DNA of 64,000 bases from Gnetum montanum (lineage: Eukaryota; Plantae; Gnetophyta). Position numbers and translations under genes: made by a program. Each line of letters opens with the position of its first letter. The first letter of the stretch is position 1. Shown here piece after piece: positions 28,601 through 60,176 of the stretch. Location: the NCBI GenBank assembly GCA_015680685.1, contig MNCI01001925.1:279573-343572 (forward strand). The letters are read 5' to 3'. The notes below the pieces were generated by a model, which was not told where the DNA came from, did no database searches, and saw only the letters and a list, made by a program, of their open reading frames with translations.

Positions 28601-30244
28601 GATGCTCAGAGGTGATCACTGTCACCTCCTGGGACTTCTTTTTTGCTATAGAAATTTGCACGAAAATCCAAAATAGAAAAAAATAAGTTAGACAAGGCAT
28701 AAGTAGTAGAAAAAGCCAGAACAACACTCGAACATTTAGTAATTTACTATTTAGCTTACCAGGTCTAAACGGCGATAGGAATGGAGGAACATCAACTAAG
28801 ACATATTCAATAGTGATTGGTTTAAAGGGTGCCCATCCCTCATCCAACCAACCAGACTTGCATCTATCATAGATCTTGGAATACCAGGTTGGATAGGTCT
28901 TGTACTCAATCATGCATTGGCCTATCACACCTACGTGCATATTCTCAGCAGAAGAAAACTACTACAGCATCATCTGTGCTATGGCCAACACATCCATATC
29001 ACTATGAAGCCCATCACCATTGATGAAAAACATGGTAAAAAAAACACACTGTTAACATTTTCCTAGCGTAGCAAACATTGCAGTGTAGCAGAACATGTCT
29101 ACAAAACTCACCCACTGGCATAGTAAACGGTTCCTGGTGGGTTCTGGAAGAACATTCCCATGTGATGTGTAATAAATAAAGTATTATATGGATGGTAGAA
29201 ATTATACTTGGGCATCACCCAGATCCATGCCAAACACCTCACATTTCTTGGACATTGACTGGATCCTTCTCCTTGCTCGCTGCTAATTGCTTCGTCCGTC
29301 AAAAATCTTAGAATACCCCAATTTTCCCTAGACAATAGGGTTTCTGTTATGATGGTCACTACCTCCTCTACCAAGTGTAACCAAATGATCACATTGAAGT
29401 GCTGGAGGAGAAATTGTAGAAAATCTTGCACTCCTTCCCAGAACTAGACCACCTGCTACCCCGCACATGCATGGGGTGGAGGGACATTGGCCATTGGTTC
29501 GCTTATGCACCAGAAGACCCCTACGATTTCTAGGAAAATCAAGATTAGCTTAGTGCCACCTTGAACAATACAATATCAAATGTTAACAACATGTTCAAGT
29601 GTAGTTCAAATATAGCATAGTAGAATTGGTATTTAGTAGATAGCGTAGCATTATTCTCTTCATGCATATAGCGTAGGAAAAAAATATGAAGGGAATAGCG
29701 TAATAGAATTAGCTTAGCGTAGCAACAAGAAAAAATTAAAGACAAATCTTTAAACAAAGAAAAATTTAATGCATTGTATTCATTTAACAGATATGCCTGA
29801 CAAAGCGATTAGCATCACACCATGACAGAACACATGTTACGCTATCACATCACACACATGGCTAAACCCTCCTAAGGGTTGTACGCTACATGCATGCCAA
29901 GTGGTTAAAATCGTCCAAGCCCCTATGGCAATGGTAGCCACAATGATGGCGGTCTAGGCGCCATTGCATGCAACCTTAGCATAGCGTCCATACATTTGTC
30001 GTGGCCAAATTGGCAACAACGACGGTGTATAAGACAAAATAACGACAACACAATGATAGAGAAAGATAGATTTCAAAAAAAATATAAGAATAAAAACAAA
30101 AAGAATAAAAGCAATAACAAAGGCATTGGAAAAATAGAGGGAGCATAGTAGCCTACTGGGTCAACAGTGTCTCCTCTCACACCACAACGTGTACTTATGA
30201 CACACGTCCTAGGATTTCCTTTACTTTGTTGACCTTGACGAGTG
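25687..30244 (-). pseudogene. Antisense multi-exon accessory gene of element B (FCP1/NIF-like, plant-transposon domain, acidic and coiled-coil regions), degenerate; its 5' end lies beyond C at about 48298-48470
   Basis: ORFs 29108-29431 (DFLQFLLQHFNVIIW..NTLFI..FQNPPGTVY), 28566-28940, 28240-28494 (DLFNLPTDGLPV), 26982-27476 and 25903-26106 match the C exons in order; GT donors at equivalent positions. Confidence 0.85.
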
Positions 30245-30249: not shown

Positions 30250-31511
30250 TGTACCGCCTGAAATCGTCAGTCTTCGGCTGGAAGGGAAAATAGAGGCCAT
30301 GGGATCGCGGGACTGGTACAGAAGACCCTGCCTTCGCCTGAGGGTGAGCTGGAATGTAACAGAGGTAGAGTACCTTGGGTGGTCCGCACGTGGATCAGAC
30401 AAGGATTTCCCCACGCGTACGCAAAACGCTAATACGCTGGGTTATGCATAAACGACGTGCAGGAGTAAATAGCAAAAACAGCGTGAAACGTAAACGGATG
30501 CAAACGAAGCGTGAGCGTAAACAGACGTAAACGATGTGTGGGCCAAATTGAAGTAAAATTGTAAAAGAACTTGTAGCAAATGTAAATAGTATAGAGTCAA
30601 AGTATAGTGCACCGGTCTAACGCAGTCGTGGGGGGACACAAGGCAGACGAAAAGCCCCGGCGTATGCAGGAATGACTCGGCCTGTTCCCAAGGCAGGCAG
30701 AGCGTAGAAACTGTGCATGCAGCATACAGGGCGTAAGAGGGTTTCAGCTCTTGTGCACATTGTAAATGTTCTCTGGTGTGCTCTGGGATTTTTCCCACCG
30801 TCTTGTGAAAGTGGGAAATGGGGGTTTTTATACAGGTTGTTATGCTAAACTCGGGTTGGACGACACGTGGCGCATTGACCAGGTGCATACACTTTACAAA
30901 TATACAAAATGTTACAACTACTGGGCGTATACGTTGCATCAAGTCGACGTATACATTGAAAATGCTGGGCGTAAACTAGGTGGACATGCTGAGCGCTGGG
31001 CGTATATGCCCACACGCTGGGCGTATACGCTAGTAAATGTTGGGCGTACATGCCAGGCGTATACGCTGATGAATGTTGGCCGTACATGCCAGGCATATAC
31101 GCTAAAGGATGCTGGGCGTACACGCCGGGCGTATACGCTGAAGGATGCTGGGCGTACATGCCGGGCGCATATGCCGAAGGATGTCCACTTGCTTCAATCC
31201 TTGCTCTTCGGTGTTATCTTCATGCTGTCATTGGAGATCTTATCGTCGAGTGTGTGCATCTGCAGTACCTGGGCGTGTACGCCGGAGAGCTGGGCATATA
31301 CGCTGGAGTTCCAGCCGTATACGCTAGACGCATATGCTGGAATGTTGGGCGTATACGCTGTATGCTAGGCGTATACGCTGGAGTGTATACACTGGCACCA
31401 TGTACTTAGCAAAAACTAAGTGTTGCGATCATGCATCCAGCGTCGTTCATGAGTTCCAGGGTCCTGTTTGGTGTCGGACAAGTACTAAGTTCCGAATTTT
31501 GTGGTGTTTCA
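30250..31511 (-). repeat. 3' LTR of element C (1262 bp)
   Basis: TGTACCGCC...GGTGTTTCA; direct repeat of 47039-48292. Confidence 0.96.
30920..31400. repeat. Array within the C LTR (U3): units of about 33 bp with the palindrome GCGTATACGC
   Basis: Repeating GCTGGGCGTACACGCCGGGCGTATACGCTGAAGGAT; also at 47710-48180. Confidence 0.9.
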
Positions 31512-31526
31512 TTGGCACCTCTTTGT
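31512..31526 (-). promoter_or_regulatory. Polypurine tract of element C
   Basis: Minus strand ACAAAGAGGTGCCAA directly before the 3' LTR; B has ACAAAGAGGGGCCAA at the same position. Confidence 0.8.
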
Positions 31527-32519
31527 TGACGCTTGGAGGAATCGATCCGAGAAGCGTCGACAAAGAAGTGCAAAACACCACCAGCAACTCGATAGAGACG
31601 TTGTCTACTGCCACTTGGATGAGATGTCATCGCACCGTGTTCAGTAGTACAGAGGATTGGGGAAAGGAAAATTTTGTATCTGGGAGGTCAGGGAGATTGC
31701 GGGGATTGATGATCGGTCCAGGAGATTAATCAGGGGAAAGGGGATGCTCTGATGTGAGGTATGCCGATCCTTGTCAATAGCCATTGTTTAGCAGACTCGG
31801 AGTTTAGACATGCGAGGTGTGTCTTTTGGTGGAACAAGGCTCTTGGTTAGTGTGCAAGAGAACTTGTTGATGGGACCAAAGCTACAGGAGGATGTGTTGC
31901 ATTCTTTGGGAGAACAGGGCCCATGTTTAATGTTCAGGGGAACCTGTTGGCAGGGAGCCAAAGCCATGTGACTTGATGCTTTTTGACCATTGTGGGCACA
32001 AGTACTTGGTTTTGAGACGACTGCCTTCCCGCCTGGGGCTTACATAGGAAGTGCCCGGGGTCTCTCTCTCTTTTTTTTTACATAAACTTTGCTCTGTTTG
32101 TGTACTCGTGCACAGGTGTTGTACTGTGTGGCGTATTGCAGCGTGCAACAGTGTGCTCAATGTTTTGAATGTACTGGGTGCGTCAAGGGTGTAGTTGAGT
32201 GGAAATTGGGGAATGAATGGGGATGTACTAGTGAATGGTTTGATTTAGTCCTGCTAGGTATGTTGCGAACATTGTCTTATCTTGCTGCTTACGACGGAGT
32301 GCATCTTTGTACGGAACTTCCAGGTGTCATCCTGCAAACATAACGCCAAGGAGATAAGAAAACTATGAGCGAATAGATGAGCTTAGACTTACATGATGGC
32401 TGATGGCACAGAGGTGCTGAAGGACGGCCGACACTATGTGTAGATGATAGCAATATTGATGATGAGCGATGCAGTGAAGCTGATGGACGATCATGATGGT
32501 GGATTGATGTGACGGATGT

Positions 32520-32855
32520 GGATTTGCCAATTTATAGTCTTGGTAAACTATTATGGGTTAGTTTTATGTCATAACCCATTGGACATTGCCTGTTTAGTGT
32601 CATGGCGGATAGTACATTGCCATTTTTTAGTCTTAGCGAACTATGAAGAGGCAAGCTAGCTTATAGTCTTGGCAGACCCTGATGGTTGTGACGGTGGAAA
32701 TTTACTGTCATGCTAGACGGGTGGTAGTTTATTATCATTGCGGACACTGTGGTATTATTTTTAAGTCATAATCCAGGACTGTTCTATGGTATCAGTTTAT
32801 CGTCATGATTCCAGGACAAGCTGTGGTATCAGTTTATAGTCGTGATTCCAGGACT
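32520..32855 (-). repeat. Degenerate array of about 30-35 bp units downstream of the integrase in C (core ATGACNATAAACT)
   Basis: Repeated AGTTTAT.GTC(A/G)TG on the plus strand. Confidence 0.7.
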
Positions 32856-32876
32856 TACACGTACCTGAGCTTATGT

Positions 32877-35800
32877 TTAGATGTAGAATAGTTTCAGATA
32901 CAAATGATTTATCGAATTAGCGAGCTCGTTCCCTTCTATGTCAGCTAACTTGAATGCACCATTGTCGAATGCCTTGATGACCACGTAAGGCCCTTCCCAG
33001 TTGGCTGAGAATTTGTCCGGGTGTTCTCGAACAGCTTTGAGTACGAGATCGCCTTCGTGGATTGGGCATTTGTTAATGTCATGCCGATGTCGCTGTCGTT
33101 GTTTCCTTTGGTACCATTTGATCTGATCGAGTGCGCGTGCACGTTCCTCTTCCACCAAGTCAAGGTCAATGAGACGTAGTTCATTGTTTTGCCCGTCGTC
33201 GAGGAGTCCGGAGAGTGTGATCCTTAACGACAGTACCTGTAATTCCAAAGGTAAAACAACTTATGAACCGTAAACGAGACTGTACGGAGTTTTACCTGTT
33301 GACATTCGGTGAGTAGTGCGGTGAGCCCATAATGCATATAGTAATTGCTCGTGCCATTTCCTTTTGCTCTGGGTGAGCATTTTCTTGAGTATTGTAATGA
33401 TCGTTTTATTGGTTGCTTCTGCTTGCCCATTGCTTTGAGGATAGTAAGGAGAGGAAAACGAGTGTTTGATCCCCAGACTATCGCAAAAGGTTTTTGTGTC
33501 GGCACTGCTGAATTGCGGCCCATTGTCAGTGATAATTGTCAAAGGGGTGCCAAAGCGGGTTATAATATTTTCTAGGATAAAGTTGCACATGTGTTTAGAA
33601 GTCGTTTTTCGAAGGGGAGCTGCTTCTACCCACTTCGTGAAATATTCAGTAGCGGTTATGATGAAACTGTGCCCTGCAGAAGATGAGGGTGTTATCGAGC
33701 CGATAAGGTCCAATCCCCACTTCTGAAAAGGCCATGTTATTTGTGCTGTGTGCAATTCGTTTGGTGGTACATGTGTTAAGTTACTATGTTTTTGACAAAT
33801 ATTACATGTTTTGACTTTGGAGAAGCAGTCGTATTCCATGTGTGGTCAATAATAGCCTAAGCATCTTATTTTCGTGGCCATGGCTTTTGGTGCTATGTGT
33901 CCTCCACATAGTCCCTCATGTACTTGATCAACTATGGTTTGGGCATCGGTATTACTTACGCATGTTAGTAATATACCTTCGTAGGATCTACGACACAGTG
34001 TGTCCCCTATGAGGGTGTATTGCCTCGATCGTTTCCGCACTACATCTTTCTGTGCATTTGTTAGATGTCGTGGTGTTTCACTGCGCAGGAGGTACTCTTT
34101 TATGTCATCGTACCATTCTATTGCGTGTATTGTGCTAACAGATGCGATCGGCAACGTATCGGAAGTTATTGGTTCATCACAGTTGATTACGGAGCTTGGC
34201 AAGGCATAGAACATGTCGGGCGATATATTTAACGCTAGTGTGGCTAACGCGTCTGCGATAGTGTTATCATTTTGAGAGACGTGTTGCACATCAATGTGTT
34301 TGAATTGTTTCATTAAATGTTTCGCCAAGTCACAGTATGGTTGTAAATGTTGAACTTTGCATGTGTAAATGTCTGTAACTTGGTTTACAACCAATTGTGA
34401 ATCCCCTCTGACTATGAGCCGTGTGATATCTAAAGCCAGTGCTGTCATGAGACCTCTAAAGAGACCTTCATACTCTACTATGTTATTAGTATAGTGAAAA
34501 CTGAAGAGATAGGCAAAGGGTCAAATCTCCCTGGAGGGATAAGTGATGACAACAGCCGCACTTCCTCCTCGAGAGGTGGATGCTCCATCAAAGTTTGAAA
34601 TAACATCGTAGTCATCAGGCATTGTGTCTATTGTGCTTATACTTTCATTTGGGAATTCAGGCTCTATGGTTGCTTGGTCATGCGTTGGTGATGCAGCCAT
34701 TTGATTTACTATGGCTTGACCTTTAACTAATGATTTTGTTACGTAGTACAGGTCAAACTCAGCTATCATGGCTTTCCACCAGGCTATTCGACTCGTTTCG
34801 TAAATGTTTCCTATTATGGCTCCCAGTACGTTGTCCTTGCAAATTACGTAGACTTGATTGCGGAAGAGGTAGTGTCGCCATTTTCTTAGAGAAAAGACCA
34901 AAGCTAAACATGACCTCTCCACGTCGTTATATTTCTTTTCATGGGCAACTAAGGCATGGCTCAAGTAGTATACAGGGACTTCAGTTCCGTCATCTTGTTT
35001 CTGATAGAGCATAGATGCGATGGACAATTCTGAAGTGGTAAGGTAGATGTAAAACGGTTTGTTGTTTTGGGGCGGGTAGACCGTAGGCAGTCGGGCAAGT
35101 GCTGTTTTGATATTTTTGAAAGCTTCCTGGCACTGCGAAGTCCATTCGAAATGGACATTTTTACGCAATAGGTGGTTCATAGGTTTTAGTTTGTTTGTTA
35201 ATTTTTCTACGAATCTCCTGATGAACTGCAATTTCTGTAAGGTTGCTTGGTGGTTTTAGGTTTGTTATGGCCTTGACCTTATCGGGGTTCACTCATATCC
35301 CTACTTCTGAAGCTATGAATCCAAGCATTTTGCCTGTTTTGACATCGAAGATGCATTTTTTTGGGTTAAGTCTTAGTTCATATTTTAAACAACGTTTTAA
35401 AACTAAGTCGAGGTCTTGTACGTGTTGTTCGATCATTTTTGATTTAACCACGATGTCATCTACATAATCGTTGAGTGATCGTAGCATGTAATCACTAAAG
35501 ATAAACATCATGGCTCTTTGATATGTGGCCCCTACGTTCTTGAGACCGAAGGGCATCATAGTGTAACAAAAAGTTCCCCATGGGGTCATGAAGGTGGTTC
35601 GAAGTTGATGTTCCAAATTGATGCGTATTTGGTTGTATCCTGAGAAACCATCCATAAAAGATAACAAGGCATGTCCTATAGTCGAGTCAACAAGTTGATC
35701 GATGCTAGGCAGGGGAAAGTCATCTTTTATGGTTGCTACATTCAAATCTCGGAAGTCGATGCATAAGTGAATGCTTTTGTTTTTCTTCGGGACGATGACC

Positions 35801-36338
35801 ATGTTGGATACCCCTTCGGCGTAATCAACAGCCCGAATGAAACCAGCTTGATAAAGCTTGGTGATCTCATTGCGGACTGCCAATGCCACCTCGGGTCGAA
35901 CTTTTCGTGCTTTCTGTCTTATCGGTCTCAGTTTGGGATCCAAAATAATGTTGTGTTGGACAATTCTAGGATCTAGCCCAAGAATGTCCGTATAAGACCA
36001 AGCGAATGCTTTCATGTTTTCCCTAAGTACGTTTTGGATGTCTTGTGCCAAGTGTGGTTGTAGTAGTGTACTTAATTTTAATATTTTTATTTCCCCATTA
36101 GGCATGGTAATGGGTGTTTCAGCTAACGGATCTTCAGTGATGTTTTCGGCCTCTATGTCAAGAAATTTCGTCATGCCTCCATAGTCATCTGTTGTTTGCT
36201 GTGTTGAGGCTATGACCGCATTGTCCATTAGTGGACTTAAATTGATGAAGTTTATGTCAATGTCCCGTGTAATGATGCCGTGTGGTCTGTCAATGGTTAA
36301 CGGTGCGGCTAACTGCAGGCAGTCCATTGAGCTTGCTC
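32877..36338 (-). pseudogene. pol: pol of element C: RT - RNase H - additional (archaeal-type) RNase H - integrase; few stops and frameshifts
   Basis: RT: CIDFRDLN, MDGFSGYNQI, MPFGLKN, YVDD. RH: PVYYLS..EKKY..E. aRH: FDGAS, NNIVEYEG, GDSQLVVNQV, ADALA. INT: HEGLCGGH..CNIC, WGLDLIG, TDNGPQF, NGQAEATNK, WEGPY. No chromodomain. Confidence 0.97.
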
Positions 36339-36479
36339 CTGCCAATAAACCGAGAGTTGCATGAGCAAAGGGATTGTTCTGTGTCTTTTGACAATTTTAG
36401 ACTATGCGTACGTGTATAACAGTGGATTATCGTCACACCTGGATGTATGGCAGTTTTATGCCTTACCGGGCAGTGTGCG

Positions 36480-36560
36480 GCAGTTTAAGGCCATACCAGG
36501 CCAATGGGCGGATGGGGAAATGGCAGTTTAAGGCCGTACCGGGCCAATGGCTATTTAAAC
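36480..36560 (+). promoter_or_regulatory. Putative promoter of the antisense gene in C: two GGCAGTTTAAGGCC..GGCCAATGG repeats and TATTTAAA (36552-36559)
   Basis: CCAAT x2 and a TATA-like box about 430 bp upstream of the predicted ATG; A and B have CTATAAATA at the equivalent position. Confidence 0.5.
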
Positions 36561-36987
36561 CAGCGTAAATGTGTAAAAAGGGGTCTACGGAGGAACTAGG
36601 ATGTAATAATCCTTGTTTTTAATGAATTTTTTGTTAAATTTTATCATTTTGGACAGATTTTGGTGAAAAATAGGAAAAAAGGCAAAAAAGGCGAAAACGA
36701 GGCAATGGCGGCGTAAGCGGCGGTGGCGTCAACGTCAGCATCATCAGGCGCTATTTGTTTTCTATTTTGAAAACGACGGCGTAGAGCGTAACCCGAGCGA
36801 GCGTGAGCGTAAGCGTACAATTGCTAAAGCGTAGGTGTAAATCACCATACCCTAGCGTAAGAGTAAACTGGAACCTAAGCGTAGATGCCGAAGGTTGAAC
36901 CCAGCGTAGATGTCGAGGCTTAAAATTCTTAACGCCAGCATAAAGTTACTCAACGTGAACGTAGATCGCTAGCGTAGACACTCTGAA

Positions 36988-39900
36988 ATGGGCAAGGGCA
37001 AGGAAGTGGAGGACCAGGGGCGGAAGGGTCCCGATCTAACCTTCGCTGAGGAGACGGAGGCCATGTTGCAGGGTTTTCCCAGGCCAAAGATTCCTGTGTG
37101 GCCTGCGACATCCTACAGGTAGGCTTTGATCCCTGCCTCTATTATTGTTTGTGTGCTTCATTGTATTCGTAGTGTAAATGATCTCGGCGTATACGCCGAG
37201 CGCAGGGATTTTTCATCATGAGGGTTTTCGGCGTGCACGCCAGCATAACTGTGCAGCGTAAACGGTGTTCAATCCTGGCGTAAACATTTTTTTGCATTGT
37301 TTTAGCATAAAAGTTCGTCAGCATGTTTTTCATCGGCATAAGTTCTATTTCTTGCGACGGCGTATACGCTGAGGGTTTGTTCGGCGTATACGCCATACGC
37401 GTACAGTTGTCTTCGGCATACCGCTTTATCTTTCTGGCATAAACTGTTTACGTCGAACTTGAAATTGAGCGTATACGCCGAGGGTTTGCTCAGTGTATAC
37501 ACCGTATGCGTGAAGGGGTTGGGGTGTCAGTGTAAAACAGATCGCCGTTAGCATAGACGCTGAGTTAGCTGGCATGTACGCTGAGCTAAATTTCGTTCTT
37601 TACGCTAAGTATTAGTTGGCGTATACATTCTGCAGACAACGTATACGCTGGATTGAATGCTTTTTTTGTGCTAAGTGTAGATCATTGTATACGCTCTGTA
37701 TATATCGTATATGTTAATTCTGAATCGCTCTAAGTGCTAAGTTTGTTCAGCGTACACCGTATGCGGCGTATACGCTGAGCGTGAATCATGGGCGTAAATC
37801 GTGGGCGTATACACTATTGTATAGCATATACGCTGGGCGTAAGTTATGTTTTTCGCACTGTAGAGTTGACATATATGCTCTATGTACAGCGTATACGCTG
37901 GGCGTAAACAGTTAGTTAAATTTTTGATTTTTTTTTGCCGATTTATGATGCAAACTTTCGTTTTGTGACATTGCGATTGGTTACAGGGACAACAAACACT
38001 TCCTTATCATGGTTGAACTCGTCGGGATGCTAGCATGGGCTGGCCGCGTTGAGGAACACGATCTTCCCCCAGCTTTATTTGTGGATGACAAGGGGGTCTG
38101 GTTTAGGGAAGGTGCTGGCGAATTTCTGGCTTTCTTGTTAACCAATTTTGAAGTGGCTATGTGGTCATATTTTGATGAAGTGACCGCACGGAGTGTGGTC
38201 GATGCAATACTGCCCGAGGCCACCGAAGGTGTCATGGTCTTCATGGAAGACATTGATGAGGGGCCTTTTGTTGATGAGGATGGCACTACCCGCAGGCCCA
38301 AGTCAACCCACCTGTTAACGCGTGTGTGGGCATTGCTGCCACCGGGGTTGGATTATGTCAATAATACATTGTTTATAGCTGCCCATGCCCATACCTTATT
38401 CCAGAATCCTCCTGGCACAGTATACCGAATAGCCAAGTGGGACAATTTACATTTATTGCTTTGCTTATTTTCATTTAATGTTGGTTTCTTGTTTTAACGC
38501 ACACTTGTTTGTAGACCGAAGACCAACCCAAACGGGACCCTCATTGAGGATGAAGGGATAGCCCTCGCTTGCGCCACTCTTGAGGCCCTTATGACGGCCC
38601 CCACTCTTCATGGGGCCATACTAGCTCAGACGAAGAGTTCAATGGTCCGTTTGCATAATCAGTTTTCCAGGGTCTTCGCGATGTGCAAGGGTCATGGGTG
38701 GCTTCAGGAAGATTGGACAGATCAGAGGCCAGTCTTTCCTCATAACTTTAGCAACACTTCCAAATCTGCCACTAGCGGTGGGTGATAACATTTCTTAGAT
38801 GCGTTAGTGGGTTTTTTCGACTGTTTGGGGTTATGCTGATATGGTCATCTTGACTTGTTTTAACAATTGACGCACCCTCCGGTGAGGATCCTGTGACGAC
38901 AGGACGAACTGAGATAACTTTGTCAATGAACTTCGGGGGGTGGAGAAGGCATAGAAGTGGCTGCGTAAGAAAGCCTCGCCACTCCTAACTCGTTGCCTGG
39001 ACGATGCCGGCCTCCTGGAGCTTTTTATGATGCCTAGCCCTGATGTCTCAATCGGGGAGATGATAGGGATCGTGGACTCTTTTAATGAGTCTGTTTCTCA
39101 GTACAGTGTCTGGATTAAGGGTGTTAAGGTGGTGTTTCATCTGTCTCCTGTGTTCTTTTCTAATTTGTTTGGTATGCCAGTAGATGGCCTACCTGTAGTA
39201 TTGGACAGGTCTCATAAAGAGCTCCAAACAATCCACGATCTGGAATCTTGGCTTGGCGTGATGAAAAACACCAAGGGATTCTTGATGCAGGGGAAAGCAA
39301 AGGTTGTTGAGGTGAACGAATTGCATCCCCTGTTTCGAGCACGGGTGTTTCCCAAAACTCTTTCTCAGGTGCAGAGTTTTGGGGTTGAGGCGGTACGCAT
39401 CATGCAGAGTATCTTAGAAACTGGCATGTGCTATAACTGGGCTCAGTTTTTGTTGGCGGGCATGCATAAGGAGATAGTGCAGTTGTGCTCGAATATCGAA
39501 GTACAATCACACTTCACCTTTGCCTTCTTCGCTGGTTATCTCCACCGTTTTACCGAGTTCCTTGTGGTGTGTGTGAACAACAAGTTTGTCCTACGGGATC
39601 GGGGTCAACTATCCCGCCTGTGGGTCAAACATTTGTTTGTGACAATGAGATCGCAGGATGCCCCTGAAGGTATCGATGAGTCTGTGTCTATTACTATAGG
39701 GGGATCATCTGGCGGTTCCATCCATACGCGGGATAGTCTAGGGGTGGAGCTAGTGGATGTACCTTTAACCGCCAGATGGGTAGAGCAGGTTATTAAAGAG
39801 ACCATTGGGAAAGCCAAGTCGAAATTGAAAAGACTTGAATGCACCATGGAGGAAGTTGCCGAGATAAACCAGCCACGCGTGAAGTGGATACGCTTCAAGA

Positions 39901-41569
39901 TACCTGGTAAGCGAAGCTCATATGCTTGTTATTGCATCGTTTTCATTCATTTATAACCCCTACAATTGCTTACGTGTCGTTATTGTTTTCTATTTGATGA
40001 AGTGAGGAAGCAGGCCGTAGAAACCATCAGAGAGGAGGAGGATACGCGTACAGAGAAAAACAATGAGGAGGAAAGCCCAGAGAAGAGCCAAGGCGGGGGA
40101 ACGGAGCTATTAACAGAGAGGACTACTGACCCTGAACCTTTAGATGACCCGGACGCTATCAACCAAATGTTCAGTAGCTTCCTCAAGGGTGACTTGGATT
40201 TGGGCGATCCCCCAGAAGGTGACAAGGATCAAGGTATGTCTTCACTTTTAGTTGGTTTTTATTATATTAATTGTGGCTCCTACTTTTTTTATTTTTGTGT
40301 TTGTGGCTTAGATGAAGGCAGCGGTACCAGAACGGTACGGTTGGACGTTCCCATGAAGACGGTTCCTCCTGAGGGGACCGCTGAGGTTAGCTCTTCCTGT
40401 ACTCGTCAGCTGCTTATTTGGTCAGAGATGCCAAATAAGTCGGATTTTGTGGATGGGATCGCGGAAGAAGTCGTTGAACATCTCCAGGAAGTCCATCCTG
40501 ATATAGGTATGAATCATTTAAAGATTAGGAGCTTCGTGTCTTACGTGTACCGTTTTAATGTTCGTGTTCTCTGCGTGGGTAGGCGCTAAACTAAGATGGG
40601 ATCCCTCTGAGGGCATCAGTATGGAAAGCCTAACTACACTCTCCCCAGAAGTAGAACAGGTGCCAAGGCCTGTTTATGAAGGGGTTGCAGAAAGCCTTGC
40701 ACACAATGCCAAGTCGTTGTGGACTTGTAGGCGTTCTGTTGAACAGTTGTGGCTACAAGTACAGGCAAAGGAAAAGGAAGTCTCTGCCGTAACAGAGGAG
40801 CGTGACGATTTAAAGGCTCGATACGAGTTTGCCGCTGCTAGACTAAGTGGAGATCGTTCTTGGCGAACCTCGGAGATTACGTACACCAGGTATTGGAACC
40901 TTCTGAACCGTCATGCGTCACTGACTCGGAGAATAGCGGAATGCAAAGCTCAAATTGATCTCCTGAACCTTAAGTGTCAAGATTGGAAGGCTTTCGCTTC
41001 CAAGGTTCGCAAGTGGGGTCAGGATGAGAAGAACCATAAACATCAGTACAAGAAGTCGCTGAAAGAGGTATCTATTGAAAAGCGGCAACTGGAGATGTTT
41101 GTGGAGGGTTTGGGTTTGCGTTCCGCCTTCGATACCTTTGCCCAAAACACAATTGTGGAAATGGAATCGCCTAAGAGGGTCATCACAACTGCTTCTGGGG
41201 AGGTGTCGGTAGGTGAATTTCCTCTGAAACGCCCTACCTGGTCAGCGGTCGACAAAGGCAAGGCTTTGGCAAACGTTGACTTAGGCCTGGACGGAACAGA
41301 TTGGGCCAGCGTTCCAGAGGAAGAAATCCTTCGTCGGCTGGAGTTTGGCTTAGGGGGATCCCCTATGGTAAACGTTTTGTCTTTATGAAGTTAATTTATT
41401 GGATAATGTTTAAAATGTTTAGCATTTGCTTATTTTTGTGTTGGTTGTTTGTTTTTGGTGTTCTTAGCATGAGGGTGACGATGATACTCACGAGGCTGGC
41501 CCCAGTGGAGCAGGGGCCCCTGACACTGGTGGTTCTAAAGGAGATGATCCTCCTATCACGGACACTTAG
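36988..41569 (+). CDS. Antisense 8-exon accessory gene of element C (about 1065 aa): FCP1/NIF-like pseudo-phosphatase, PMD/Transposase_32-like domain, coiled coil and acidic tail; this copy is lightly damaged
   Basis: Predicted exons: 36988-37118, 37987-38436, 38515-38777, 38867-39906, 40003-40233, 40312-40506, 40583-41367, 41468-41569. Six of seven introns are GT..AG and phase-compatible. The intron 3 acceptor reads TAACAA (inferred G>A). There is a 1-nt frameshift at the G run 38935-38940 and a TAG at 38952. Confidence 0.8.
37180..37910. repeat. Dispersed GCGTA / GCGTATACGC motif array in predicted intron 1 of the C antisense gene
   Basis: Same motif as the C LTR array and the 5' leader (46320-46990). 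Confidence 0.8.
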
Positions 41570-41685
41570 TATTTTTGTAGTTTTTTGTGTTTTTTTTGGC
41601 GGTTTTTTTGCTAATTTAAATTGATACGGGTATTGTAACTAGAAAATGTTGAAGAAAATAGGCACTATTTGTACAACATTGCATG

Positions 41686-41691
41686 AATAAA
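41686..41691 (+). terminator. Putative polyadenylation signal of the antisense gene in C
   Basis: AATAAA about 115 nt after the stop, followed by T/GT-rich sequence. Confidence 0.5.
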
Positions 41692-41826
41692 TATTTTTTT
41701 GTTGGTTTTTAAGTTGTTTGCACACATGACATGATACTAAAGTATTTTTGGGTTCGCTTTTCTGTTTAACTGCAATGCACAGAAGTAATGATAAATAATA
41801 TGTAAACAGGAGAACAAGTTTTGCAC

Positions 41827-42140
41827 TAGTTTAAGGCCATTTCGGGCCCCAATGCATAGTTTAAGGCCGTTTCGGGCCCCAGTACGGACGAGTAATATGT
41901 CATGGCGGATATTTCGTAGTTGACTGACCATTTCTGATCATGGGTTGTTTTATGTCATCGCGGACATGATAGTTTAACGTCTTTCTGGACAAGGAGTGTT
42001 GCAATTTTTTATTTTTTTTTTGCTGTTTATTATTATTTCTTTGTGTTTTTGGGTTTTATCGTAGTTTAGCGTCATTTCAGACAAGTTATAGTTTAACGTC
42101 GTTTCGGACTGTTCGTAGTTTAATGTCGTTCCGGACGTTG
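41827..42140 (-). repeat. Short repeat arrays downstream of PR in C (GGGCCCGAAA(C/T)GGCCTTAAACTA x2 and CCGGAACGACGTTAAACTA-like units)
   Basis: Direct inspection; homologous to the A and B arrays. Confidence 0.75.
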
Positions 42141-42147
42141 TAATATT

Positions 42148-45100
42148 TCATTTTAGTTGTTTCTTAATTTTCTTCATTTTTTTATCAGGGATTGTATTGA
42201 CCGGTATGATTTTGTATTCTCTATCTCCTTCGCTGATCACGTTGAATGGCAATTCAGTCCAGGAGATGTCTATTAGAATGTTTTCGGTATCGATACTTTT
42301 AGGTGCTTCGATGTCGGTTGTTGTTTTTGTGTTGGTTTTTTCATGAGGTGACGCGTGTACAGTGTTAAACACAGGTATTTCGGCTTCAGGCTCTTGTCCC
42401 GTATTCGAAGGTTCACTAACCACCAGTTGCGTTTTGTTTGAGTCCTTTTGACCAGGCTTATCGAGTTCAACCTTGGAGCCTCGATCCTCGTCTGTGTGCG
42501 ATGCAATGAGGGGAGAGGCTGCTTCCCCATGTATGATGATTTCACCACCCTCGTAGGGTAGGTGAATCTCCTGATGTATAGGGGAGGACACAGCTCTCAG
42601 TTAGGCCAATCAGGGTCTTCCTAATATTAGGTTGAATCTTGGCATTTCATCGACGACGAGGAAGTTAGCAGATGTGGGGAACTGGTCTCCTACTACGAAG
42701 TCTAGGGTTATTGTGCCTTTGACTAATACGCGCGACCCGCTAAAGGACTTTAAGCATGTCGTTGTGGTGGGTTTGATCAAGTTGGTGAGCCCCAATTGTT
42801 CAATGATAGGATACGGTATGACGTTGGTGGCTGCCCCATAATCTACATGTACCCTATGTATTTTGAATTGGTTTACATGTATAGTTATGAACATAGGGAT
42901 TGTTCTTGTCTCGCCTGTCTTCTTATCTACTTTGATGTTCTCATCATGGAAGCTCAAGGGCTTAGGAACGGCACCGTGAGATGGATACATTACGGCATGA
43001 ATGGCCGGTTCGCTCGGAGGCAAGTTCTTGCTAACTGGGATTGACGTGAGCATGCGTACTAGAGCTTCTCGATGAGTCTGGGATGTTAGTACCAAGTCAT
43101 ACAAGCTTAACGAGGTGTTTTTCTGTTTTAGGGCTTGAGTAACTTGTGTCAGGGCTATTGCGAAATCTCTACTATCAGGGACGTTTTTATTAGCAGTGAC
43201 TGGGTCCATTGGACCCAATAGTTTTATTTCGTGTTTTGGTGGTTTGTCATTATTGTTAAGGCCTACCATTTTATACGGTTCTTGTGTTTCAGATGACTCA
43301 CTGTTGCTATCCGTGTTCGGTCGACCATTGGATGATGACATGGGGATAGAGTTAAGTGGAGTTGGTTTGGGTGGCCCCATGGCTAGCCATTGGCGTTCCT
43401 TCTCCATGTGCTCATGTGTAAGCCTGTCTACTAGGCGTTCTCGTGTGTTACGCGGAGGTGGAATTGGCCTCGGAGCCTGGGATTGCCCTGGGACCTTTAC
43501 TACATATGGAGCCGAACGGGGTTGCGGGTGGACGGTGGGATATGATTGGGTAGGAATCTGTCCAGGTATCCTGATGACATACAGGATTGGTCTTGGTGGA
43601 GGTTGGACCTCTGTTGTTGCAACGGCGGGTGGTACTTGGACTACAAAAGGGGTAGGCCGAGCATGAGGGGTTGGTGTATCCGCGGGATTGACCGGAGGGA
43701 TGCGCACCACATATGGTTTTTGACGCATTGTGATGTTGGGGGTGGGCACGGTCGGGGGCACTCAAACTACGTATGGCCAGTGCGGGGCGTGGGATGGTTG
43801 AGATGTAGGTGCGGATGCAGCAGGAGGAATTTGAACCATGAATGGCTTTCCAAGTGTTTCTTGCTTATTTTCATGGTAGATGGTGTTGATGTGGGGTGTG
43901 TCGGAATCGTCATCACAATAGATTGCGTCAATTACGTACGCTGCCTCTTTAGTATTCAGGGGGTCTTTGTACACCCCATGGTTTGATTTTGTGGTTGGAC
44001 GGGGTTAGCCCCGTCAAAAGTGATTTTGCCATCATCAATCATCCGCTGGATATCCTGTTTCAAGGTGAAGCAGTAATCCGTTCCGTGCCCATTGCATTGA
44101 TGGTAGTCACAGAAGTGATCCATCCTAAACCATTGGGCATGGGCGGCTCATCTGGCGTTGCTAGGCTTAGGTTCTGTATGAGTTGGCAGAATCGTTCGTG
44201 CCTTTGGATGGCCGCAGGGGATAATTGCTTATGTTGCATGAACCCAACCTTTAAGAGTTGGTCAAAGAGCTGGGACGGTTTCATTGGTAAAGGCGTGTAC
44301 TGAGAAGGTTCCTTCCTCTCGAAATTACGCTCACAGTTCGTCGGGTTTTGTGATGATGACTCTGTGGTTGTTGTGGGAGCGGGTTGATAGTAGTTAGTGG
44401 TGGTTTTGGGCGGTCTTTGTTGATGTGTGGTGTTCATTTGTTGGGTTCCCGCTAATGCTGCTATAGTTGTCTTGGCCTTCTCTTTATCCTTTTTAGTATG
44501 TTGATTTTTGAAGGCCAAGTATGCCGGGTCATGGCTATTTTGAGCCGCTTCCTCTATGTTTCTGATCTATAAAAATGCCTGATTCACATCACGTGCATTG
44601 AGGTAATAAAGTTTGGACTTAAAGAAATCATTGACAGCCACCTTCAGAATTGTAAGCCAATAGGTTAGAGAGATTGGTTCGTGCAGCTCGTTGACAGCCG
44701 CACTCCATCTCTGAATAAACTTCTGTGCAAGTTCAAGCGGTGCTTGCTTGATCTGCATGAGGTTGTCCAGTGTGGCCTCAGGTTTCAAGTTGTACTTGAA
44801 CCGGGTCACAAACTGGCGTAAAAGATCATCCAAAGAGAAAATAGAGCTCCTAGGCAGGGCCCGGTACCAGTCGAGTGCTCTCCCTGCGAGAGACATGGAA
44901 AATACTCAGAGGATGGAGTGGGGACAAGCCTGGAGCAGCACACATTCTAGCCAGAATGTTATAAGGTGCGCGTTGGGATCGGTCTCCCCGTTGTACTTTG
45001 TTAATGTGGGCAAGGGGACACCTTTAGGTAAGGTTAGAGGTGGGACCGAAGAGCTGATAGGGTCATTGTTGTAGAAATCCACTACCTTTAACTCTCCCTC

Positions 45101-46261
45101 AGTGGCCGTTTGGAGCCATTTTACCTCTTCAGTAAGATCTTGCATTATCTTTTTGGCGTCCACCTAGTCTTGGGCGCTTGGTGATGCGGCGGCTTGGGGT
45201 TGTGGTATACTGTACAAGCTAGATTGTTGCGTGTTAGGGTGAAGGGCTGACAGCTGTGCGAGTGCTTGTGGAAAGGTTGCGGCAGGCAGCGCTACAGATG
45301 GCACGTGGTAGGGAAAGGGTTGTTGTTGGTGTTGCTGTAGCTGGGGTTGTGCTTAGGGAACATTGATTAGTGGAACCGCGTGGGGTGGTGTATGGGGATG
45401 GGGAACTTGATGCGACGGTGCTCCCCTTGCTGGCCATTACCCCGCCACATTATGGGCGGGGACTCCCTATTGGGTCACGGCTGTTTGGGGAACTGTATGT
45501 TCTTGGACGTGTGGTATGAAGTGGGTGGATGTGGATGCCAAAATCACATGTGGCACCCCTATCACCCTTGGTGGGAGTGTTGCCCCTAGGTTATCGAAAG
45601 GTGGCGGCACTTGTGAGGATGGGCCCGTAGCGACAGTAGGGACAAACGCGAGTGGGAAGGTGTTGGGTTGGTGATCGCTCAGAAGAGGGACGTGGACTAG
45701 TGCTGCTGTTTCCGGTGGTGGCTATTGAGCCTGGACGAATCTAAGGTGTTGCAAGGGCATGAGTTCCCCTGTGCCAGGATGGAAGATGGGGTTGACCTAT
45801 GCTTGAGGGCTTAAGATATGGTACGACTCTCCTTGCTCGGATTGAGCGGTGAATCCATCCTCATCCTCTGGTTGGGGCTCTAGTGCGGGCTAGTCCAACT
45901 AATTGTTTCTTTGAAGGAGGAGTTGCGTGATGAGTTCCGAATATTGTTTAGGAACGGGAATTACGTTGTACGGAGAAGGGATGAACTCTCGTCCCCCCCT
46001 GTAATATAGCTCAAACTGCCTCTTCACCTCTAGTTCAGCTTGATCAACAGCCAGGTCAGCTTGTATTTTAATACAGATAAGGTTGTACTAGTCCTTGGTA
46101 ATGATGTTAGAGGCTGGGTCCCTCCCTTGCAGCCTTACGGATGGGCGGGGACCCGCTGTGGGTTGCATTCCTGGGTGTTGTGGTATAGGCTGTTGGACGG
46201 CAGTGAGGTCCATGGTGGCGGCGGTGTGAGCGGGGACAGCAGTGTTGTTAACAGGGTTCAT
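42148..46261 (-). pseudogene. gag: gag-protease of element C (interrupted by several stops and frameshifts)
   Basis: ATG at 46261; N-terminal RPSVRLQGRDP domain; KYNGETDPNAHL; RALDWYRALP; knuckle CDYHQCNGHGTDYC at about 44075-44120; protease VHVDYGAATNVIP and FNLILGRP; ends at a stop at 42148. Confidence 0.93.
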
Positions 46262-47017
46262 GATGCTATGTCACGGATAGGAGTAAGTCTGGAAAGGCGG
46301 AGTTGCTCTGTAATGTGGCGTGTAGTGTATACGCTTCAAAGGACAGCATATGGTATCAGCGTATACAACGTGTGCAGTGTATACAGCGTATATGGGCAGC
46401 GTAGACGCTGGAAAGCATATAAGGCGCAGGATGGATCAGCGTAAAGTGAGACGGCGTAAAATAAGAGCGTAAGATAGGGAGTAGCGTACAGCGTAAAAGA
46501 GGTGATCAACATAATGCAAGAATGTAATAAGTTGCAGCGTAAAGGACCACTTAGCGTAAAATTGGTGTTTAGCGTAAAATAGACGAACGTGACAAACTCA
46601 GCGTAAACACCAGCTCAGTGTAAAACAGGCCAGAGCATAAAACAGAAGATAGCGCAAAACAGGCGAGCGTACAATGGGTTGCAGCGTAAACAATTTGCTG
46701 CGTAAAATTCACAGCGTAAACAGTTCATAGCATGAAACAGGCTTAGCGTAAAGGCCGACTCCGATGTAAAGACAGGCACGTAAAACAGGTTGCAGCATTA
46801 ACAGTAGAGCTTAAAATAGATGAACGTAAAACAAAGATGTAGGAGAGCAGGTTTTTAAGAACGTAAACGCTGTGCAGCATAAACACTGGACAATTGCGGG
46901 TTGGGTTTTCGAACCGGACAGCATAAACGCTGGGAAAGTTGGGGCAGCATACCATTAGCAGCATAGACGCTTAACAGCGTATACACTGGGAGTTGCGGGT
47001 AAGGGTTTTAAGGAGGT

Positions 47018-47033
47018 CCTCCTTCTAGCGCCA
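47018..47033 (-). promoter_or_regulatory. Intact tRNA-Asn primer binding site of element C
   Basis: TGGCGCTAGAAGGAGG, complementary to the 3' end (..CCUCCUUCUAGCG-CCA) of plant cytosolic tRNA-Asn(GUU) as recalled; 5 nt from the LTR. Confidence 0.9.
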
Positions 47034-47038
47034 ATTTT

Positions 47039-48292
47039 TGTACCGCCTGAAATCGTCGGTCTCCAGCTGGAAGGGAAAATAGAGGCTGTGGGATCGTGGG
47101 ACGGGTACAGAAGACCCTACCTTCGCCTGAGGGCGAGCTGGAATGCAACGGAGGCAGAGTACCTTGGGTGGTCCACACGCGGATCAAACAAGGATTTCCT
47201 TGCGCGTACGCAAAACGCTAATATGCTGGGTTATGTGTAAACGACATGCAGGCGTAAACAGCAAAAACAGCGTGAAACGTAAATGGATGCAAACGAAGCA
47301 TGTGCATAAACAGACGTAAACAATGCGTGGGCCAAATTGACGTAAAAATATAAAATAACTTACAACAAATGTAAACAGTACAGAGTCAAAGTACAGTGCA
47401 CCAGTCTAATGCAGTCGTGTGGGGACACAAGGCAGACGAAAAGCCCTAGCGTATGCAGGAATGACTCGGCCGGTTCGCATGGCAGGCAGAGCATAGAGAT
47501 TGTGCGTGCAGCGTACAGGGCATAAGAGGATTTCAGCTCTTGTGCACAACGTAAATGTTCTTTGGTCTGCTCTGGGATTTTTCCCACCATCTTGTGAAAG
47601 TGGGAAATGGGGGTTTTGATACAGGTTGTTACGCTAGACTCGGGTTGGACAACACGTGGCACGTTAATCGAGTTCATACACTTTACAAATATACAAAATG
47701 TTACAACTACTGGGTGTATACGCTAGGTGTATATACCACATCAAGTCGGCGTATACGCTGAAAATGCTGGGCATGAACTAGGTGGAGATGCTAAGCGCTG
47801 GGCGTATACGCTGGTGAATGTTGGGCGTACACGCCGGGCATATACGCTGATGAATGTTGGGCGTACACACCGGGCGTATACGCTGAAGGATGCTGGGCGT
47901 ACACGTCGGGCATATACGCTGAAGGATGTTGGGCGTACATGTCGGGCGCATACACCGAAGGATGTCCACTTGCTTCAATCCTTGCTCTTCGGTGTTATCT
48001 CGATGCTGTCATTAGAGATCTTGTCGTCGAGCGTGTGCATCTAGAGTACCTGGGCGTGTACGCTGGAGAGCCGGGAGTATACGCTGGAGTGTTAGGTGTA
48101 TACGCTGGACGCATACGCTGGAATGCTAGGCGTATACGCTGTATGCTGGGCGTATACGCTAGAGTGTATATGCTGGCACCATGTACTTAGCAAAAACTAA
48201 GTGTTGCGATCATGCAACTGGCGTCGTTCATGAGTTCCAGGGTCCTATTTGGTGTCAGACAAGTACTAAGCTCTGAATTTTGTGGTGTTTCA
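47039..48292 (-). repeat. 5' LTR of element C (1254 bp)
   Basis: Adjacent to the PBS; direct repeat of 30250-31511. Confidence 0.96.
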
Positions 48293-48456: not shown

Positions 48457-48466
48457 CTATTTATAG
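48457..48466 (-). promoter_or_regulatory. TATA box (CTATAAATAG) for the antisense gene of B
   Basis: Canonical plant TATA in antisense orientation; identical in A at 60167-60176. Confidence 0.65.
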
Positions 48467-48880: not shown

Positions 48881-49165
48881 ACTCTAATCTATTGGTAGTC
48901 TAAAGAAATTAGATTGGAAATTTTTCATTTTTAAATTAGTAGTCTTGCATTTTTACAATAGCAGTTTTGCAATTTTACACTAGCAGTTTTGCATCTTTAC
49001 CTCCAGGCAGTCCGTCATGACCTTAAACAAGAAAATCTTAAGCTTTCTATCATACTTTCTACTTATTTCTATCGTGCACATTTCATTGCTACTTTTCAAA
49101 TTTTCACTATGCACAGTTACTACAAATAGGTATCTCTTGACTAGACATTCATCTTGTTTTGGCAG

Positions 49166-56154: not shown

Positions 56155-59100
56155 AGTATCACGGGTTAAGAGGAATTCATTCCTAGAATGGAGGTCTCCC
56201 ACCTCGGTGAGCAGATTGGCCTTCTCTTTATCTTGCCTCTAGACCTATTTCCAGAGGTCTTCATTCATGCACCTACACTCCCAAAAGGAGCATGCCGAGT
56301 GTAACACACATTTGCTAGCCTCGTCGTATACTTGATGAGGCACCTCGGTTACTTCAGGTGGGAATGTAGGTACGACATCCACCTTTACTGCTTGTTTTGG
56401 GTCCCACTTGCAATGAGAGGCTATTATCACAGGTAAAAGCACATTAATCATGGTAGCATAGCAAAGTTTGGCAACTCAAGAGGTCTAGTGTAGCAAGCTA
56501 AAAGTCTAGCGTAGTCACTTTACGTACCCACTTCCAGATCAACCTGTTTGAGACGACTAATCATGTCATCGACAACTCCCTACATAAATGTGAGCTTGTC
56601 AGGGGTCTTGGCCCATGCTTCTAGCTGGATAAAGGGAAGTCCTATAGTGTCAAAAATGGTGTCTACCACATAATCAAATGCATCAGTAATGACTGAGGTG
56701 GACTACAATAAAATAGGTGAGTAACGTAAATGACAATTTAAAGTCTCCTACCCAGCACAGCCTCAGGGGTGATAGTGGGGGTGGGGGGGGGGGGGGNACA
56801 CATCAAAATACTATCGAATATACTTTCAAACTCACTGACATCTTGTTGTAGCTCCCCTCTTTGTTGGCTTAATACTATAGCAACACCCTCTACATTCATC
56901 TATTGCTCCGATGCTGAAATTTATTTAGCAAAAGGATCATCGGTAGAGGTTTCTTCCTCATTAACATGAGCTTCCTCTTTATTCACTGGGGCCTTTCTTT
57001 TTAAGTTACCAGCATCCTCCTCATCATCAAAAATGTCCTCCTCATCTATGGAAGGGTTTTCCTCAATGATAGGAACCCCTTCCTTTGTGGTGGGGTTTCT
57101 CTCTCTCTTGACTAAGGCCCTTCCCTCTTTGGCTGGGGCCTCCATGTCTTTATTAACTACCCCTATTTTGGGGGCTGACACCTATTCATCACCTTCTTCT
57201 TCTTCTTCTTTTTCCTCTAGTAGCAAGGCATGTTTGCATTAGCTTATAGCATGTTAACTTAAAATCGATGCTACACTATGCTACTCTTCCTAGCATAGCA
57301 TAGCGTAGCAAGCATTCACCAAAAAAACAAAAAAACAAGTAAACTGCTAAAAGCATGTACAAATGGGGGGCTACATCCAGTGTATCTTGAACTGTAGTGT
57401 CCACCCCTCTTTTTCTTCCATATGGAGAAGCCCCTTAGTTGGAAGAGGCCTCTTCCACCACAACTTGGTGGCCATTGTCTCCGCGATGAGGTGTTTCCCC
57501 TATGATACACTACATATAGTAGAAGGGGATGCCTCTCCCATGCTGTCGTGGCCACGGAAGTTGCGGGCCACCCGATCCTTATTTGTCATGGAAAAATACT
57601 ACCTGATTGCTTCTAGGGATTCCTGAGCTCGAGTGGTCTAGAAGACTTGGCAAATCCATGGTTTGGGAATTTGGTTACCATCTTGCATAACCCAGACTCC
57701 ATTCTCATAGACCACTAAGAATTTTACGAAGTGCCATAAGCAGGCTATGTAAAAGGCATGGTGCACATTGAAATGGGACTCATGCTTCGTATGAAGATTG
57801 ACTATTTTAGCTTGCAAGCCTTTGCAAAGATGCCTAGCCTAGTTGTAATAGGCTCCCTCTTCCATTACCTCCCTCATCACCCAACCTTGCTCGATCCCAA
57901 TAATCTTTCCTTGGGAATGAAGTTGGGGGAAAGCATGGTCACGGAAGAGGGGGTAAATGTCTTTGGCTGCTTTTGGCTTTGCTTTTTCCATAAGGATCCC
58001 CTTTCATCCTTTCTCCACCCCTTGCCACTTCTCAATGTCCCCATGATGGTTCACCTCTTTTTTGATCTTTGCCTGTATGGGGAGGCCATCAGTGGGGACA
58101 CCGAAGAGGTCCATGAATAGTTGGTCATTGACTTCAAGGACCACCCACACATCATGCATGTATGTGTTGAAGTGATTTTCCTTTCTAGAGAAGTATTTAG
58201 CTAGGGCCAACATCTCACTTGTAGGGACGCTTGGGTTCATGGCCAAGAACAAATCCATGAGCCTAGCATCCCGAATGTGGTTGGTCAACGATTCTAGGAC
58301 CTAGTTGCAAAGCCAGCGTTGAGCTTCATCTACCTCCCCATACTTGAAGTAGATGTTGGCCTCATGATGCCTAGAGGTGATCACCATCACCTCTTTGGAC
58401 TTCTTCGATGCTACAACATTTCACACAAAAAACATAGATAAAAAAAATAGCATAAAAATAGAAGCAATGCTCAAATTTTCAAGCAACTCACTATTTAGCT
58501 TACCAGGTTTAAATGGCGATGGGAATGGTGAAAGATTCATTGATACATATTCAACAGTGATTAGCCTAAGGGATTTCCAATCCCCATCCAACCACCCAAA
58601 CTTCTTGCATCTGTTGTAGAGATGGGAGTATCGGGTTGGGTAGGTTTTGTACTCTCCTCCGCATTGGCCTATCACACCTGCGTGCATATTCTCAATGGAA
58701 GAAAACTCTCTCAGTGCCATCTATGCCAAGGCCAATGCATCTGTGTCACCATGAAGTCCATCCTTATTGATAAAAACCCTGGTAACAAAAACATGCCGTT
58801 AACATTTTCCTAGCATAGAAAGTATTGCATAGTGTAATGTGATATGTTTATAGAATTCACCCACCGGCATAGTAAACGATTCTTGGTGGGTTTTGAAAAT
58901 AAGTTCCCTTGTGGCAGGCTATAAACAAGGTGTTGTATGGATGGTAGTAATTGCATTCGAGCATCTCCTAGATCCATGCCAAACGCCTCAAATTTTTTGA
59001 GCACTGACTGGATCCTTCTCCCTACCTGCTCCTGATTTCTCCATTTGTCAAAAATCTCAGGATATCCAAATTTTTCCCTAGGCAACAGGGTTTCTATCAC

Positions 59101-60061
59101 TATGGCTTCTATCTCCTCTGACAAGTGTGACCAAAAAATCACACTAAAGTGCTAGAGGAAAAATTGTAGGAACTCCCATGCACCTTCCCTGAACCAGACC
59201 GCCTACTACCCCACACATGTGTTGGGCAAAGGAATGGTGGCCACTGGTTCACTTATGCAGCACAGGATCCCTATGATTTCTAGGACAATCAACATTGGCC
59301 TTAGCAGCACCTTGCATAACATAATTGCAAATGTTAACCTCATGTTCGAGCAAGATTCACATATAGCATAGTAGAATTAGCAGTTAGCAAATAGCATAGC
59401 ATGACTCTCTTCATGCATGTAGCATAGCAAAAAACATGAAGGAAATAGCATAGTAGAATTAGCCTAGCATAGCAACAAAAAGCTAAACAAAAATATTTTG
59501 ACAAGAAATAATTCAATGCACCGCACTAGTTTTATCAAATCTTCTACTTGAAAAAATGATTTGCATTGCACCGTGATAGACACGTGTTACCTTGTCAAAT
59601 CACATGCATGGCCAAACCCCCTTTGAGGGTCATATGCTATGCTATTTGCATACCAAGTTACTAGAATCGCCTAAGCTTCTGCAGTAAGGTAGCCACAACA
59701 ATGGTGTTCTCGAAAGCATTACATGCAACCTTAGCATAGTATCAATGCACCATTGTAGTCGAATTGGAAACAATAGTGGTGTAACAGCCAAAATAACAAC
59801 AAAAATGATAACAGGAAACACAGATTGCATAACAAAACTTGTAGAAAAAAAAATTAGAGAAAGCAGAAGAAATAGCAGCAACATAGAAAAACAAAGAATA
59901 GCATAGTAACTTATTGGGCCGATGGGGTCTCCTCTCGCATTGCGACGCATGCCTATGACATATACCCTAGGGTTTCCTTCACTTCGTCGACCTTGGAAAG
60001 TGCTAGGTGTTTGTGGTCTTTCTTTAGAGCCATCATTTTGGTTTCTGATTCTTTCTTGCAT
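56155..60061 (-). pseudogene. 5' and central exons of the antisense accessory gene of element A, degenerate
   Basis: MLIVLEIIGIL..VWFREGAWEFLQFFL at about 59150-59295; ORFs 58421-58720, 58004-58288 (DLFGVPTDGLPI), 56921-57181 and 56245-56451 (KWDPK) are colinear with B and C; 5' limit approximate. Confidence 0.85.
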
Positions 60062-60166: not shown

Positions 60167-60176
60167 CTATTTATAG
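60167..60176 (-). promoter_or_regulatory. TATA box (CTATAAATAG) for the antisense gene of A
   Basis: Identical to the B site at 48457-48466. Confidence 0.65.

Follow-up and report, generated by a model that had tools for sequence, protein, structure and literature searches.

A predicted inactive FCP1/NIF-type HAD domain in the antisense gene of a Tat/Ogre-like retrotransposon of Gnetum montanum

Why should a large plant retrotransposon carry, on the strand opposite to its polymerase, a gene with a phosphatase-like exon in which the catalytic residues have been replaced? The question is raised by a stretch of 64,000 nucleotides of Gnetum montanum (contig MNCI01001925.1; hereafter the window) that consists of nested LTR retrotransposons, among which three elements, A, B and C, are recognised. 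Element C (18 kb) is inserted in the first exon region of the antisense gene of element B, and element A lies to the right of this nested pair. The structural features of C are the following.

30250-48292, minus strand: element C, delimited by an LTR pair and a target duplication of 5 bp with one mismatch
47039..48292, minus strand: 5' LTR, followed by the primer-binding site; 87% identical to the 3' LTR
42150..45700, minus strand: gag-protease, with its own stop near 42150; 8 stops in the two frames read
32877..36396, minus strand: reverse transcriptase (RT), RNase H, second (archaeal-type) RNase H and integrase
30250..31511, minus strand: 3' LTR; flanks TCAAG / CCAAG

The LTRs, the target duplication and the order RT-RNase H-archaeal RNase H-integrase are those by which Ty3/Gypsy elements of the Tat clade are recognised, and with its gag-protease (of which the aspartic protease scores weakly) set apart from this block, element C has the layout of the Ogre/Retand type within that clade (PMC6317226). 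Its primer-binding site, which we take to resemble tRNA-Asn, differs from the tRNA-Arg or tRNA-Lys sites given as typical of Ogre/Retand in the sections of the literature on which we draw. Common to C and to Ogre/Retand elements, in the available sections of their descriptions, are the separation of gag-protease from the RT block, the archaeal RNase H between RNase H and integrase, the 5-bp target duplication, the 18-kb size and an accessory gene in antisense that is in part coiled coil (PMC6317226; PMC4408406). That Tat elements carry coiled-coil genes of this kind in antisense is well documented (available parts of PMC4408406, PMC11963269 and PMC7264820), and the last of these sources, in the part available, describes the antisense extra genes of plant LTR retrotransposons as mostly unexplained in origin and as unexplained in function (PMC7264820). 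In A, B and C alike the gene lies in the spacer between gag-protease and RT (5.7 kb in C), opposite in strand to pol and head to head with RT. In C it comprises eight exons from 36988 to 41569 on the plus strand, with about 1,060 codons and seven predicted introns.

36988..37118, plus strand: exon 1, from the ATG, 43 codons; predicted junction
37987..38436, plus strand: exon 2, FCP1/NIF-like HAD domain, 149 codons, stop-free; acceptor AG seen, donor predicted from the phase common to A and B
38515..38777, plus strand: exon 3, 87 codons, which copies A and B also conserve; unmatched by the cellular profile
38867..39906, plus strand: exon 4, some 340 codons; unmatched in Pfam and PDB
40003-40233, plus strand: exon 5, acidic; junction 4-5 in RNA, junction 5-6 predicted
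40312-40506, plus strand: exon 6, acidic; junction 6-7 in RNA
40583-41367, plus strand: exon 7, weak matches to coiled-coil families; junctions 6-7 and 7-8 in RNA
from 41468, plus strand: exon 8, running to the stop at 41569; junction 7-8 in RNA
29112..29560, minus strand: NIF-like exon of copy B; two in-frame stops
58861..59310, minus strand: NIF-like exon of copy A; stops and one frameshift

Copy C is damaged in exon 4 (a frameshift near 38934, a stop at 38952 and no canonical acceptor), the other seven exons being stop-free. In related copies the antisense gene has its own spliced transcript, read from its own strand, as three downstream junctions show: GT..AG joints on the plus strand were found at 39905-40002, 40503-40580 and 41366-41467, each in two or three of four RNA runs and represented by 1–5 reads or 1–2 contigs, the reads coming from related copies and being mostly less than 95% alike to copy C. 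One RNA library had a strong strand bias, of the sense that a plus-strand transcript would give. RNA depth over exon 2 is low (about 1–5), and no read joint for junctions 1-2, 2-3, 3-4 or 5-6 is among those listed for the four runs; the joining of the NIF-like exon to exons 4–8 is therefore predicted from splice signals and from the phase shared by A and B, and the product would be one fused accessory protein of about 1,060 residues. TATA-like boxes lie upstream of the antisense gene at 36501-36559 (+) in C, where CCAAT boxes also occur, at 60175 (-) in A and at 48465 (-) in B, and represent a candidate internal promoter between this gene and RT.

Exon 4 includes a conserved domain of about 300 residues, with 33% identity between C and both A and B. 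It gave no Pfam match at E values up to 5 in C and B (one weak, unrelated match in A) and no PDB sequence match, and its structure model (pLDDT 32) is unusable for fold assignment. A plant mobile domain (PMD, PF10536) was considered for this exon on a resemblance by eye only, and in view of these results we make no such assignment.

Exon 2 is an FCP1/NIF-type HAD domain. The peptide on which a preliminary description of this locus had based its case for a retrotransposon-borne phosphatase-like domain is in frame at 37988-38434 (+) with zero stops, and the hmmscan against PF03031 that it proposed does return the Pfam NIF family, with E = 0.0011 and 19.1 bits, a score below the 21.8 cut-off and confined to residues 36–79. 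A phmmer search of 1.84 billion proteins with exon 2 yielded six matches, four to NIF proteins and two to unrelated repetitive proteins. On a profile of 59 cellular homologues C scored 44.8 bits, B 26.3 and the first piece of A 30.4, compared to shuffle maxima of 0.3, 4.5 and 0.6 bits respectively, and exon 2 is colinear with its cellular relatives over about 145 residues at 25–35% identity. Word-index searches yielded no homologue, whether the query was exon 2 alone (56 candidates) or the alignment of the elements with longer lengths (6,080 candidates), and a PDB sequence search with exon 2 alone returned chance matches only.

The AlphaFold2 model of exon 2 (pLDDT 75.6, pTM 0.71) leans towards the NIF fold through its input, a 6-row alignment including two cellular NIF proteins; with Foldseek all ten of its matches at E ≤ 0.001 were CTDNEP1, Tim50 or Scp-family chains (CTDNEP1 at E 1e-4), and its top match by VIA was Scp1 1t9z (Z 9.0, rmsd 3.9, 121 residues aligned), followed by other HAD proteins. 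The model has the HAD fold in common with UBLCP1, Scp1, Fcp1, CTDNEP1 and Tim50 at 12–18% identity, and differs from them in that the element product lacks DxDxT and showed no ubiquitin-like or BRCT domain. The element structure of C and the Pfam, phmmer and profile scores thus bear out a retrotransposon-borne HAD/NIF domain, but of the span originally assigned to it (37987..38777) only exon 2 stands, exon 3 (38515-38777) having no score on the cellular profile. A likeness by eye between exon 3 and the cellular C-terminal extension that follows N-P-P was likewise set aside, its profile scores lying at or below those of shuffled sequences in A, B and C.

The catalytic positions of this domain fall in three motifs.

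38015..38029, plus strand: motif I, which reads E-L-V-G-M instead of the D-x-N-G-L of cellular relatives or DxDxT
38309..38311, plus strand: motif III Lys column, His in C and Arg in the other two copies; 87 of 91 homologue domains have Lys
38372..38386, plus strand: motif IV, F-I-A-A-H in place of L-I-D-D; His common to A, B and C

Motif I is replaced in all three copies where the preliminary description had placed the change, reading E-I-V-G-V at about 29530-29516 (minus) in B and E-I-I-G-I at about 59280-59266 (minus) in A. The nucleophilic Asp has become Glu in each, encoded by GAA in all three and reached by transversion from Asp codons. The loss of the motif IV acidic pair, which had been reported for C (F-I-A-A) and B (F-I-T-H), extends to A (F-I-A-C), so that Asp-Asp is replaced by AA, TH and AC respectively; among 91 homologue domain cuts the first of these aspartates is kept in 90 and the second in 80. 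The motif II Ser is absent in copy B. In SpFcp1, according to the part of the source available, Asp170, Asp172, Lys280 and Asp297/298 are catalytic, and D170A or D170N is inert (PMC4436666). The equivalents of all these residues are replaced in A, B and C, and none of the copies has the DxDx(T/V) motif I, the motif III Lys or the motif IV Asp-Asp of an active CTD phosphatase; the domain is predicted from its residues to lack phosphatase activity. Near the former active site, the motif I Glu and Gly, a W-F-R-E-G-like strand, the motif IV His and F-Q-N-P-P are nevertheless common to the three copies.

The preliminary description derived the domain from a DxDxT-type CTD phosphatase, and here the evidence points elsewhere. 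All four true phmmer matches have D-x-N-G as motif I, and exon 2 of C scores 44.8 bits on the profile of 59 non-DxD domains compared to 10.4 on a DxDxT profile (n = 13), where 200 shuffles reach 0.3 and 2.7 bits respectively. The W-S and N-T-L signatures of exon 2 are those of UBLCP1, in place of which Scp1-type chains have F-T-A and D-N-S, and among solved structures it is UBLCP1 that comes nearest in sequence (E 2.4e-07, compared to 0.35–1.4 for Scp chains). A follow-up profile search, whose query included DxNG proteins and was therefore biased towards them, gave 81 matches, of which 60 lack the second Asp (42 of them DxNG), 15 are DxD, all among the weakest, and 6 have no motif call. In a tree of 36 rows (33 hand-picked cellular domains, 7 of them DxDxT, with A, B and C, and without plant CPL, SCP, TIM50 or UBLCP1) the element domains group as a single clade, which falls on the DxNG side and has a very long branch (2.84). 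The DxDxT proteins compared, 13 in the profile and 7 in the tree, are other than plant CPL, SCP and TIM50 proteins. The phylogeny that had been proposed as a way to the donor thus gives a single A/B/C clade and its side of the family, but no single donor.

Since the DxNG matches, the profile scores, the proximity of UBLCP1 and the side of the tree agree, the ancestor most likely already lacked DxDxT, and the link to the CTD is weak. It seems likely that the domain was captured once by the element, from a cellular DxNG subfamily related to UBLCP1 and not to CPL/SCP. The cellular DxNG-type FCP1-homology proteins (PF03031; green plants and other eukaryotes) have W-S, N-T-L and N-P-P in common with exon 2, but for the most part retain the first Asp along with the Lys and the Asp-Asp, all of which the element domain lacks. 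This cellular family itself drifts towards pseudo-enzymes, with 13 of the 60 non-DxD matches lacking the first Asp, and several of its members have been automatically named TIM50 or CTD phosphatase by their sources. No element-borne relatives were recognised among the 81 follow-up matches; those belonging to multi-member sets were considered as transposon-borne and rejected, as they have the look of host genes of prasinophytes (Ostreococcus is the label of one of them).

Were the replaced residues merely decay of copy C, related copies should restore the motif, and the preliminary description had named a family consensus with DxDxT as the outcome that would make this an active phosphatase. Contigs of three DNA runs, carrying three organism labels and showing high copy number under each, were aligned to C (1,183, 1,439 and 1,149 contigs, the more divergent ones aligning less well). 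At the codons covered for the Glu, the Val and the Ala-Ala, no change reaching at least 30% is among the 40 of 43 differences listed, and thus no common reversion to DxDxT; at position 38310, within the motif III codon, more than 90% of the DNA depth differs from C. As no common reversion is listed for the related contigs, we consider the catalytic replacement ancestral to the family and not decay of this copy.

The dN/dS ratio between B and A is 0.40 (0.25–0.66) for exon 2, 0.48 (0.25–0.90) for exon 3 and 0.34 (0.24–0.49) for exon 4, compared to 0.26 (0.19–0.37) for RT; in other frames it is 0.61–1.21 for exon 2 and 0.58–1.21 generally. For exon 7, compared between two decayed copies, it is 0.59 (0.35–1.11). 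Among common DNA differences in exon 2, 16 of 35 fall at third positions (p = 0.087, five RNA-only differences excluded), a mixture of private decay and shared variation, while 20 of 21 exon 7 RNA differences do so (among the 40 of 478 listed). These ratios point to moderate purifying selection on the exon 2 domain. Because the catalytic residues are replaced in A, B and C, common reversions are absent from the differences listed and dN/dS is 0.40, exon 2 likely encodes a selected pseudo-phosphatase, and we hold it highly probable that the domain is an inactive module maintained by selection.

What such a module might do is less certain. The reading we prefer, to which we give somewhat better than an even chance, is that the dead NIF-like domain acts as an adaptor or decoy at the front of the element's accessory protein. 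A HAD domain would have been captured once from the cellular DxNG subfamily by a Tat/Ogre-like element. After capture its active site would have been remodelled, with Glu for Asp, Arg for Lys, loss of Asp-Asp and a His newly common to the copies, whereas purifying selection continued to act on the fold. The introns would likely survive reverse transcription because the gene runs antisense to its template, the genomic RNA. The dead domain may still bind the partners of the cellular DxNG protein, which the exon 4 domain and coiled coil might tie to the chromatin, RNA or integration complex of the element, and the outcome would be higher expression or mobility.

Alternatively the fold may be vestigial, stabilising or spacing the fusion protein while binding nothing specific. 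The weaker constraint on exon 2 than on RT is consistent with this, as are the very long tree branch and the identity of only about 30% between C and copies A and B; however, the residues around the former active site that the three copies have in common are not drifting freely, and we think this reading unlikely. Less probable still is the role put forward in the preliminary description, that of a putative binder of the phosphorylated RNA polymerase II CTD, or a decoy for host CPL/SCP phosphatases, that counters silencing. The Scp1/Fcp1 fold of the model speaks for it, and the available part of PMC7264820 proposes a role as nuclear regulators for the antisense proteins of Tat elements, but the fold matches reflect which family members have solved structures, the nearest relatives are DxNG proteins with UBLCP1 far ahead of the Scp chains, and the phosphate-binding Lys and the metal site are gone. 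That the pocket has been rebuilt as a different active site (Glu, Arg, His) for another substrate is very doubtful: the replacements are conservative and common to the copies, with His at one motif IV column throughout, but both Mg-binding aspartates and the general acid/base have been lost and B lacks the motif II Ser. A passenger gene of no benefit to the element, whether a host or a DNA-transposon gene inserted in the spacer, could account for the retained introns and the apparent promoter, but is already largely refuted, and hardly credible, given that its position is the same in elements with only about 30% protein identity, the purifying selection between copies and the high copy number under three organism labels.

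Both the NIF-like cargo and its position between protease and RT are apparently undescribed. In the sections of the literature available, the extra ORFs of Ogre/Retand elements flank the polyprotein region on its 5' or 3' side, unlike the gene of element C, and carry PMD, Transposase_28, DUF390 or SMC-like domains, NIF/HAD being absent from the list of 12. The domain and lineage tables of the largest survey (supplementary tables, PMC6317226, as available) likewise have no entry for NIF, and every position given in them is 5' or 3'. That survey, as described in the available part, covered ORFs of at least 250 codons situated upstream of the polyprotein or downstream from it (PMC6317226), and would therefore have missed a gene in the protease-RT spacer. 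In the literature searched, subscription papers apart, neither a retrotransposon with an FCP1/NIF domain nor one with a gene placed between protease and RT came to light.

The captured AlkB demethylase of orchid Gypsy elements is a similar case of a host enzyme domain fixed in large plant Gypsy elements, but is active in vitro, whereas the domain of C lacks its catalytic residues (PMC9289625, available part); the main text of that screen, as far as available, makes no mention of NIF. By analogy only, MAIN/MAIL1-PP7L and MAIL3 (PMC7156037) combine a transposon-associated domain with a phosphatase-family domain in transposon control, with the differences that PP7L is a host PPP-family protein and that exon 4 of C has no PMD match.

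The locus provides an accessory-gene domain whose cellular source can be traced and which clearly bears the marks of conversion from enzyme to putative binder, in a high-copy family that is still transcribed. It offers a concrete handle on the accessory gene and, equally, on a phosphatase-like host family that is uncharacterised. Genes of this kind would escape surveys based on ORFs because of the protease-RT position and the many introns. More tentatively, and with a probability we would put well short of even, the elements may represent an undescribed Gypsy lineage in which pol is split around a nested, intron-rich antisense gene, and whose pseudo-phosphatase mimics a conserved but little-studied host protein as a counter-defence against a pathway that restrains retrotransposons; if so, the mimic would point to the function of the DxNG family itself.

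Several further observations concern the organisation of the window. An acceptor-like TTGGCAG occurs at 36342-36335 (minus) in C and at 49160-49180 (plus) in B, about 10 bases ahead of the first ATG of the RT frame in both, and is degenerate in A; its location suggests that the message for pol may be spliced, with either the entire spacer removed or a leader exon joined on. A gag fragment of another, related element lies at 81-944 (minus), and a single assembly N at 56797 falls within the antisense gene of element A. Between approximately 7000 and 27000 there are three tandem units of 5.4–7.1 kb, 73–89% alike and with 27-bp tandem repeats, each holding gag-protease together with the antisense gene's 3' end; these units may have arisen by internal tandem amplification or as nested copies.
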